IMG/VR virus record: IMGVR_UViG_2718217885_000012
Location: 1 to 41,649 of that record
DNA: 41,649 nt
Strand: one strand, 5' to 3'
DNA from: a virus
Lineage: Duplodnaviria; Heunggongvirae; Uroviricota; Caudoviricetes
Below, one piece after another: positions 29,377-30,174 of the stretch. The position numbers and the translations under genes are program-made. Under the pieces are notes generated by a model that was not told the DNA's origin, searched no databases, and worked only from the letters and a program-made list of their open reading frames with translations. The stretch's first letter is position 1. Each line of letters opens with the position of its first letter.

Positions 29377-30174
29377 TCACCTGTCGAAAAACACGTAGCC
29401 AGTTTTCGATACGGTGATTGCGGATGATGGTTTGGATTGTGGTTGAATGGTTTCTGGCTTCTCGTCGTTCCAGCGCTGACCGTTCAGGTAGCTCGATGGT
29501 AACAACCTGTCGAATCCGAACTGCTTACCATTCCTGCATGCGATGTCTTCTGCCAGCATCGTGGCAAACTCGCTTGCCGTACCCCTGGTAGTTTTACGCC
29601 ATTCCCTGAACTGTGTTCTGAATGCCGAAGCTGCGTTTTTCTTCCCGGCTTTCCGCATGCCTGCACACCAGAATATTTCCTCGAATGCCTTGTCGATTTC
29701 TTCGTGACGGTCAGGAGTTTTTTCACACTCTGTTCGGACATGTTCGAACATAATGTTTTTAGGTTCATTGACTGGTTCAAAAGAGTGATAGGTTCTGGGG
29801 GCAGCTCCTGCCCCACCCCCTAGGGCAGCTCCTGCCCCACCCCGGGCAGCTCCTGCCCCACCCCGGGCAGCTCCTGCCCCACATGACTCTGGTTGGATTT
29901 GTTGTGCATTATCCAATGTCAGATAAAAAACGTTTGACTGGTTAAGCTCTCCTTTTCTTCTGAATTCCCTTTTCAAAAGCCCCATCTCTTCCAGTGCCCT
30001 AATGTGACTTTTTACTGTCGATCTGCTCACCTCACACTGGTCAGCGACATGTTGATATGAAGGCCAGCATTCGCCATTATCATTGGCGTTATCGGCAAGT
30101 TTAATCAGAACCAGTTTTCTCAGTGGGTTGCCAACCTTTATATTCATGGCCTTAGCCATAAGATTCATGCTCAT
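29377..30174 (-). CDS. Replication initiator protein (HTH N-terminus; iterons embedded in the coding sequence)
   Basis: Position after cII; N-terminal HTH-like QHVADQCEVSRSTVKSHIRALEEMGLL; four tandem DNA repeats inside the gene encode GAGAARGGAGAARGGAGAALGGGAGAA. Confidence 0.65.
   Translation of the reverse strand: MSMNLMAKAMNIKVGNPLRKLVLIKLADNANDNGECWPSYQHVADQCEVSRSTVKSHIRALEEMGLLKREFRRKGELNQSNVFYLTLDNAQQIQPESCGAGAARGGAGAARGGAGAALGGGAGAAPRTYHSFEPVNEPKNIMFEHVRTECEKTPDRHEEIDKAFEEIFWCAGMRKAGKKNAASAFRTQFREWRKTTRGTASEFATMLAEDIACRNGKQFGFDRLLPSSYLNGQRWNDEKPETIQPQSKPSSAITVSKTGYVFFDR
29798..29885. repeat. Putative replication origin iterons (four 22-bp tandem repeats, each with internal dyad symmetry)
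   Basis: GGGCAGCTCCTGCCCCACCCC starting at about 29799, 29824, 29846 and 29868; each contains the palindrome GGGGCAG-CTC-CTGCCCC; AT-richer sequence follows. Confidence 0.75.

Follow-up and report, generated by a model that had tools for sequence, protein, structure and literature searches.

A probable replication origin of dyad iterons and a conserved box inside an O-like initiator gene of a lambdoid phage

Introduction

Bacteriophage lambda has its origin of replication midway along the initiator gene, where the gene encodes the linker between an N-terminal DNA-binding and a C-terminal recruiting domain; this origin comprises several dyad repeats of ~20 bp, with an A+T-rich segment and a palindrome downstream of them. 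Iteron plasmids, with winged-HTH Rep proteins such as RepE, pi and TrfA, combine a winged-helix initiator with binding sites arrayed in helical phase and with an unwinding element beside them (Wegrzyn et al. 2014 NAR), and in origins built from DnaA boxes and DnaA-trios the sequence-specific unwinding repeats keep a set distance to the final binding site (Richardson et al. 2016 Nature). Each lambdoid initiator gene carries its own, different iterons (PMC8022706), and the joint exchange of N-domain and repeats is a long-known pattern of lambdoid origins (PMC8022706, PMC2629481). Iteron number varies by phage, adding residues to the protein, with six iterons in the Stx phages 933W and P27 (PMC7466680, PMC8022706); in lambda, unwinding needs no more than two iterons together with the A+T-rich region, and three iterons are enough for growth (PMC7466680). 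The distantly related initiators encoded by gene 18 of P22 and gene 18 of phage L also have their own repeats inside the coding region (PMC8022706).

Here a four-copy repeat array is described in a 41,649-nucleotide stretch of a tailed-phage genome (IMG/VR record IMGVR_UViG_2718217885_000012, positions 1 to 41,649), termed the window. Comparison of sequences makes it likely that the array is the iteron part of a phage replication origin, located inside the linker-coding segment of its own O-like initiator gene.

Results

An O-like initiator of the HTH_36 type

The gene that carries the array and its neighbourhood comprise the following features:

29377..30174, minus strand: O-like replication initiator gene, 265 aa, with the candidate origin inside (ORF; Pfam HTH_36; PHROGs 4617/270/8540)
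29887..30174, minus strand: N-terminal winged-HTH DNA-binding domain, aa 1-96 (winged-HTH matches at aa 17-71; alignment; helix class tracks iteron class)
29380..29766, minus strand: C-terminal domain module, aa 137-265, swapped whole among lambdoid phages (119/129 aa identical to ES18 gp59)
27389..29269, minus strand: phage primase-helicase, T7 gp4-like, 626 aa (Toprim_2, 2.6e-12; AAA_25; DnaB_C; PHROG 239, 1.5e-171)
30337-30690: cII, lambdoid early-right operon
31069-31701, plus strand: cI, lambdoid early-right operon

The initial annotation had called this ORF a replication initiator, and profile searches agree, assigning it to the O-like type. Pfam HTH_36 covers aa 17-67 with E=5.6e-14 (52 bits, the cut-off being 25), weaker winged-HTH matches (HTH_24, GntR and IclR-type) cover aa 34-71, and the PHROG families matched, labelled 'replication initiation (O-like)', are 4617 (1.7e-76), 270 (3.9e-69) and also 8540. 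Alignment of N-domains reveals an invariant N-terminal core and a variable predicted recognition helix at ~aa 49-62 (VSRSTVKSHIRALE). The initiator has no match to Phage_rep_O (PF04492) at E<=0.01 and no Pfam match to Rep_3; judged by these profiles it stands outside the Pfam family of lambda O, and its own family is, as far as literature was found, undescribed. A PDB sequence search returned no homologue better than E=0.3, and an AlphaFold2 model computed from the single sequence (mean pLDDT 35, pTM 0.23) is not usable for domain boundaries. The primase-helicase gene (PHROG 239 label 'DNA primase/helicase') lies directly downstream, and the C-terminal domain of the initiator presumably recruits its product. 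Gene layout is cI-cro-cII-O-P-ninB, with cro represented by a cro-like HTH gene and NinB after the primase-helicase. The nearest phages are the Stx2 phages phi24B, Min27, Stx2a_F403/F451 and EH2085/2086 and the Salmonella phages SI5/SF6/SI8; the phi24B record annotates O and P and, in the stretch examined, no origin.

Four dyad repeats encode the interdomain linker

The array occupies codons 97-125 of the 265-aa ORF, between the HTH (aa 17-71) and the C-terminal module (from aa 137), and contains four exact matches to one 15-mer:

29799..29813 (arms 29798-29814): iteron 4, box-proximal, 7-bp arms; the proximal site keeps a constant distance to the box in every relative
29823..29837: iteron 3, GGGCAG-CTC-CTGCCC, 24 bp from iteron 4
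29844..29858: iteron 2, spacing 21 bp
29865..29879: iteron 1, farthest from the box, spacing 21 bp

The core GGGCAGCTCCTGCCC starts at 29799, 29823, 29844 and 29865 and, in an exact 15-mer search, nowhere else in the 41.6-kb window; around 29800 the sequence reads GGGGGCAGCTCCTGCCCCACCCCCTA / GGGCAGCTCCTGCCCCACCCC / GGGCAGCTCCTGCCCCACCCC / GGGCAGCTCCTGCCCCAC. With up to three mismatches on both strands eight matches were found, all within the array, against 0.69 expected, a count reached in 0 of 100 shuffles. Tandem Repeats Finder (TRF) reports 29799-29882 with period 21, 3.9 copies, 95% matches and a score of 141. The presence of four repeats within the initiator ORF, in frame and encoding a G/A-rich linker (CGAGAARGGAGAARGGAGAALGGGAGAAPRT), is thereby confirmed as initially annotated. 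The periodicity given there, ~22 bp, is replaced by a 21-bp period with one 24-bp step (start-to-start spacings of 24, 21 and 21 bp, all multiples of 3). The palindrome GGGGCAG-CTC-CTGCCCC, attributed to each copy, is present at 29798-29814, the only copy with 7-bp arms (GGGGCAG-N3-CTGCCCC), while the other three have the 6-bp arms GGGCAG-CTC-CTGCCC; counting from 29798-29814 as copy 1, the CCC that ends the unit is missing from copy 4. Four 21-bp units with dyad arms of 6-7 bp and a 3-bp spacer correspond to the pattern of lambdoid origins, at least two dyad repeats of ~18-21 bp. A separate period-6 row at 34194-34277, in the middle of a 322-aa protein (ORF 33682-34650, plus strand), is E/A/K/R-rich, probably coiled-coil, and unrelated to the origin.

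Repeat sequence follows the recognition helix across the family

A tblastn search with initiator aa 1-96 matched 357 phage records. The relatives read comprised 11 genes at 49-100% identity, 80 viral contigs collected by N-domain alignment and 120 contigs collected through the conserved box described below. In all 11 genes first sampled and ~200 further relatives, the N-domain ends in ...SSNxYxLxLD and is immediately followed by 1-7 dyad repeats with a period of ~21-24 bp. Among 124 distinct combinations of helix and repeat zone, no proximal site was common to two helix classes. The pairings are:

helix x[SG]RSTVKx with repeat TGGGGC(A/G)G..CTG(C/A)CC
helix IS(K/R)RSVMN with repeat T(A/G)GTGCAGGAG(A/C)T(T/G)CAC
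helix CS(K/R)(S/T)AV(R/K)x with repeat T(A/G)TGCC..GGCA
helix IDRSTVR(R/K) with repeat TGTAGGCCC..AGCA
helix CDKRTAMR with repeat GTGAT-N5-GTCAC
helix MSR(K/T)TAI with repeat GT(G/A)TAAAAATTACAC

Changes between classes are mirrored on both arms, so that the dyad is kept (GTGCAG..CTGCAC vs GGGCAG..CTGCCC). Physical linkage may account for part of this co-variation, since less than 100 bp separate the repeats from the helix codons. Within the class of the window, diverged members (L033, L034, L041-L045, L048, L049) have four non-identical sites, of which the outer ones are palindromic and the inner ones, GGGGCAGGAGATAACCC, retain only the left half-site GGGGCAG. The first site of diverged members of this class often has the central triplet inverted (GGGGCAG-CTC-CTGCCC vs -GAG-), which changes the peptide (GAAPAL vs GAGAAP) and leaves the arms unchanged. 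Family-wide, the co-variation offers naturally occurring data from which a recognition code of winged helices might be read.

In Burkholderia phage vB_E174 (L097 901-1400) the homologous N-domain has an 86-aa ORF to itself, and a second gene, annotated 'replication initiation O-like', follows ~150 bp later, which looks like a split initiator.

A conserved box abuts the proximal iteron

Downstream of the array in gene orientation, three overlapping elements were identified:

29762..29798, minus strand: conserved box of the candidate origin, 37 bp, CCA-GAACCtatCAC-TCTTTT-GAACCAGTCAAT-GAACC; family consensus CCAGAACCAGTCACTCTTTTGAACCAGTCAATGAACC
29720..29779: A+T-rich dip, GC 0.33-0.35, overlapping box and palindrome (composition profile)
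29731..29750: imperfect 20-bp palindrome TGTTCGGACATGTTCGAACA, with a T-run after it on the plus strand (terminator-like scan; TRF period-10 row)

The box adjoins the last iteron at a fixed offset, in the order proximal iteron, CCA, box, and contains direct repeats of the 10-mer GAACCAGTCA. The form found in relatives directly 3' of the last iteron is CCA-GAACCAGTCAC-TCTTTT-GAACCAGTCAAT-GAACC; in the window a degenerate version (GAACCTATCA) takes the place of the first copy. The box is near-invariant throughout the closer N-domain subfamily, which includes enteric, Vibrio, Pseudomonas and Aggregatibacter phages, and in distant relatives (35-45% identity), which have repeats of their own, the exact box was not found. 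Of 120 viral contigs collected through the box, 112 have the N-domain in frame upstream (112/113 evaluable), seven reach the contig end and one is frameshifted; in this set the box occurs solely inside HTH_36-type initiator genes. Its distribution follows the N-domain and is independent of the C-terminal domain and of the partner type (DnaB-like, P-like or primase-helicase). The frameshifted case, IMGVR_UViG_2880183892_000004 (L046/L151), has an internal frameshift with a stop at codon 123 and the box in other frames; it is a pseudogene, unless the frameshift stems from a sequencing error.

Codon use and reading frame locate the constraint. In 19 representatives below 85% nucleotide identity the commonest codon is used at 55% for invariant N-domain residues (n=32), against 100% for the un-anchored box codons AGA-ACC-AGT-CAC-TCT. 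The two copies of the 10-mer are read in different frames within one gene (RTSH vs EPV), and mEp013 uses the third frame (NQS); the constraint therefore acts on nucleic acid. We take the box, with moderate confidence, to be probably the unwinding or loading core of the origin. Candidate identities from other systems were rejected. The DnaA-box consensus is unmatched; a one-mismatch IHF match at 29778-29790 is owed to a TATC variant of the window lineage and is absent from the family consensus; and by inspection the T7-primase site (G/T)(G/T)GTC is absent, the box occurring with all three partner types. In the literature searched, the 10-mer GAACCAGTCA turned up only in unrelated primers. In Pseudomonas phage MD8 (L098, gene nt 240-450), seven CCCCGCAG-N4-TGCAC repeats are followed by four GAACC at ~11-12-bp spacing; this series could represent a divergent version of the box, whose core would then appear to be helically phased GAACC.

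The A+T-rich stretch is short and mostly made up of the box (~40% GC). The palindrome, terminator-like and antisense to the initiator gene, is the sole such site in the promoter/terminator scan; it forms part of the C-terminal module, and a positional counterpart flanks the origin in ES18 and Sf101. Just past it, at 29719-29727, lies a single exact DnaA-box-like 9-mer (TTTTTCACA), and DnaA-box-like sites are not enriched (66 found vs 86 expected). The 9-mer, like the palindrome, belongs to the C-terminal module, with similar sequences in ES18 and Sf101.

The N-domain, iterons and box move as one module

About 20 phages (ES18, epsilon34, Sf101, mEp043, SEN22 and others) match the locus by megablast only at 29300-29761, the C-terminal half of the gene. 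In the C-terminal domain the window initiator and ES18 gp59 are identical at 119 of 129 aa (92%), and BLASTP detects no similarity between the window N-terminus and ES18 gp59; the N-domains of ES18 gp59 and Sf101 gp44 belong to Pfam Phage_rep_O (E=1e-35 and 1e-37). The ES18 GenBank record holds a rep_origin 'similar to lambda ori' at L006 2001-2085, which corresponds, by the offset from the common alignment, to 29800-29884 of the window. In this slot ES18 has four lambda-type TCCCTC..GAGGGA repeats and Sf101 four GTCACC..GGTGAC dyads, each array followed by an A+T-rich stretch and a palindrome, with GTCCGAAAGTGTTCGGAC in both phages at the position matching the window palindrome. N-domain and repeats are thus exchanged together on a constant C-terminal/helicase module. 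A mosaic joint lies inside the initiator gene at ~29761-29766, the ~20 lambdoid phages sharing only the C-terminal module at 92-97% identity, and N-domain, iterons and box are therefore exchanged as one module. SI5-type Salmonella phages share N-domain, iterons and box with the window and differ in the middle and C-terminal region.

Iteron number is polymorphic

Of the complete E. coli genomes, 302 out of 5,426 carry a match. Where the N-domain is near-identical, the genes have these copy counts:

1 copy: L019, L021, L024
2 copies: EH2086, SI5, L016, L022, L026, L028-L030
3 copies: phi24B, L020
4 copies: this window, L027
5 copies: L025
7 copies: EH2085
~10 copies: E. coli UTAK-8, ORF intact, 308 aa

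Length polymorphism is extreme, as seen at L001 2000-2147 and L220 450-663 and in L019, L021 and L024. Length differences among full-length E. coli alleles are multiples of 21, or 24 if the longer proximal unit takes part, and in one lineage all copies carry a GGTCAG variant; the identical copies are therefore attributed to recent slippage expansion of the box-proximal iteron. Since the repeats encode a linker, the protein tolerates changes from 1 to 10 copies, and the array can serve as a length-polymorphic marker over this range. The viable phages phi24B (3 copies) and SI5 (2 copies; source irrigation water) were both deposited as complete phage genomes, and their copy numbers fit, by analogy, the lambda precedent of two to three sufficient iterons. 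The single-copy prophages L019, L021 and L024 have an intact ORF; one iteron is fewer than any characterised lambda-type origin requires, and these prophages may be defective.

Discussion

Alternative explanations for the array and box

Slippage in a linker, without any selection on DNA, would also generate identical, length-polymorphic repeats, and the array could accordingly be a neutral in-frame minisatellite, a slippage-prone flexible (GAGAARG)n linker without a cis-acting role. Copies are indeed identical and number 1 to 10 among near-identical genes, every spacing is divisible by 3, and GGTCAG in every copy of one lineage is a sign of concerted evolution by slippage. A neutral repeat is nevertheless difficult to reconcile with an array that has been lost in no relative and that in every case keeps one copy or more next to the box at a constant distance, with non-identical copies in diverged relatives that retain GGGGCAG while the peptide changes, with a separate dyad for each N-domain class, or with the annotated ES18 origin in the same slot, and we regard this explanation as unlikely. 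The dyads might alternatively be operators at which the initiator or another regulator binds, for autoregulation or to block rightward transcription, with the true origin elsewhere. Inverted repeats to which Rep dimers bind serve as operators in iteron plasmids, and the neighbouring direct GAACCAGTCA repeats could be the real initiation sites. A repeat search found no second repeat family in the replication region (27300-30750), however, and the dyads hold the position of the proven lambda-type iterons in ES18; nor are operator and origin roles mutually exclusive. The box is contiguous with the array, and the origin would therefore remain at this locus even if the dyads were operators, a role that we consider very unlikely to be their only one.

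The repeats could also act through structure rather than as protein-binding sites, by forming cruciforms, G-quadruplexes (GGGG-T-GGGG on the coding strand) or mRNA hairpins with a role, for example, in translation or transcription pausing or as the target of a defence sensor. Each unit can form a stable hairpin of -7.7 kcal/mol (z-scores for the array, -2.6 and -3.1), and in lambda, where Lamassu is enriched at the O-gene iterons during infection, these iterons have been proposed to form hairpins or cruciforms that attract LmuB of Lamassu during replication (bioRxiv 10.1101/2025.04.02.646746). Hairpin potential is not conserved, however, falling to -4.5 kcal/mol in the GGTCAG/GACC variant and to -1.0 kcal/mol for the inner sites of relatives; the promoter/terminator scan places no promoter, terminator-like site or terminator-like T-run within the array, and Rfam gives no match at E<=1 within 29000-30700. 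We consider a purely structural role highly improbable.

A proposed model for the candidate origin

Evidence at variance with an origin includes the composition of the array, which at 75-82% G+C lacks the A-tracts and bends of lambda iterons, and the shortness of the adjacent A+T-rich stretch. The lambda-like arrangement proposed initially, with iterons inside the initiator gene, nonetheless holds at every point open to sequence comparison: the slot between N- and C-terminal domains, the ES18 rep_origin in that slot, the co-variation over 124 combinations, and the palindrome downstream, whose neighbouring A+T dip may correspond to the A+T-rich region of ori-lambda. The locus is thus supported as one that would work like ori-lambda with an initiator that is not of the lambda O family. 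By analogy with lambda O, we infer that N-terminal-domain dimers would bind each dyad (half-site GGGGCAG, arms 3 bp apart), and that four sites ~two helical turns apart would assemble an O-some-like complex. This complex would destabilise 29731-29798, comprising the GAACCAGTCA box, the short A+T-rich stretch and the palindrome, and the C-terminal domain would recruit the T7-gp4-like primase-helicase that the phage itself encodes in the neighbouring gene.

As a more tentative proposal, which we hold to be possible but somewhat short of an even chance, the variable helix would read the variable iterons, and the box would be an undescribed sequence-specific origin core read by the invariant HTH_36 N-domain, probably as single-stranded DNA, and common in unchanged form to hundreds of phages of Enterobacteriaceae, Vibrio, Pseudomonas and Aggregatibacter that differ in iteron specificity, C-terminal domain and helicase type. 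The reader would be the invariant part of the N-domain, KLVLIKLADNAND-GECWPSYQ, acting after melting in a manner comparable to DnaA-trios or the 13-mers of plasmid DUEs. If true, box and helix reading together would constitute a two-part testable recognition code for a large initiator family. The invariance of the box suggests a shared unwinding or loading element, and it is the part of the locus most worth experiment. The module is also that of the Stx2 phages phi24B and Min27 and several Stx2a phages of O157:H7, in which the origin is unannotated, and its location offers a target for studying the control of Stx-phage replication and hence toxin gene dosage. Palindromic origin repeats are, in addition, candidate triggers for defence systems such as Lamassu.

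Comparison with known systems

The window resembles iteron-plasmid and DnaA-trio origins in its winged-helix initiator, its phased sites and the proposed unwinding repeats fixed beside the last site. Iteron-plasmid origins combine a Rep_3-family initiator with direct-repeat iterons that monomers bind and with DnaA boxes, whereas the window has dyads and a candidate origin inside coding sequence; with no Rep_3 match and no enrichment of DnaA-box-like sites, the locus does not appear to be a Rep_3 or RepE-like origin. The repeats in gene 18 of P22 and phage L differ from those of the window in sequence and length, those of phage L being six imprecise copies of an 11-bp sequence, and no GAACCAGTCA box has been reported for these origins. 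Closer counterparts are ES18 gp59, epsilon34 gp50 and Sf101 gp44, which resemble the window in the C-terminal domain, at 92% identity, in the downstream T7-gp4-like primase-helicase and in the slot used for the origin (PMC2629481), but have an N-domain and iterons of lambda-O type, unlike the window.

The window shares with ori-lambda the mid-gene position between the two domains and the succession of dyad repeats and palindrome; its short A+T-rich dip may correspond to the A+T-rich segment of lambda. The two differ in the N-domain (HTH_36 vs Phage_rep_O of lambda O), in the partner (primase-helicase vs a P-type loader of host DnaB) and in the iterons, G+C-rich GGGCAG-N3-CTGCCC without A-tracts against TCCCTC-A4-GAGGGA in lambda. 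By sequence the window iterons fall outside the TCCCTC-N-GAGGGA type of the lambda O family. Unlike in ori-lambda, the copies are identical and highly length-polymorphic, and an invariant GAACCAGTCA box takes the place of most of the generic A+T-rich region. A literature search (phi24B ori, iterons, HTH initiators) returned only lambda-type work and no paper on these iterons or box. Class-specific dyad repeats with a GAACCAGTCA box at a fixed offset, the feature defined here for HTH_36-type O-like initiators, are present in the window. An origin inside the initiator gene is a known lambdoid architecture, here probably seen with an HTH_36-type initiator, whose iterons and box are, as far as literature was found, newly described.
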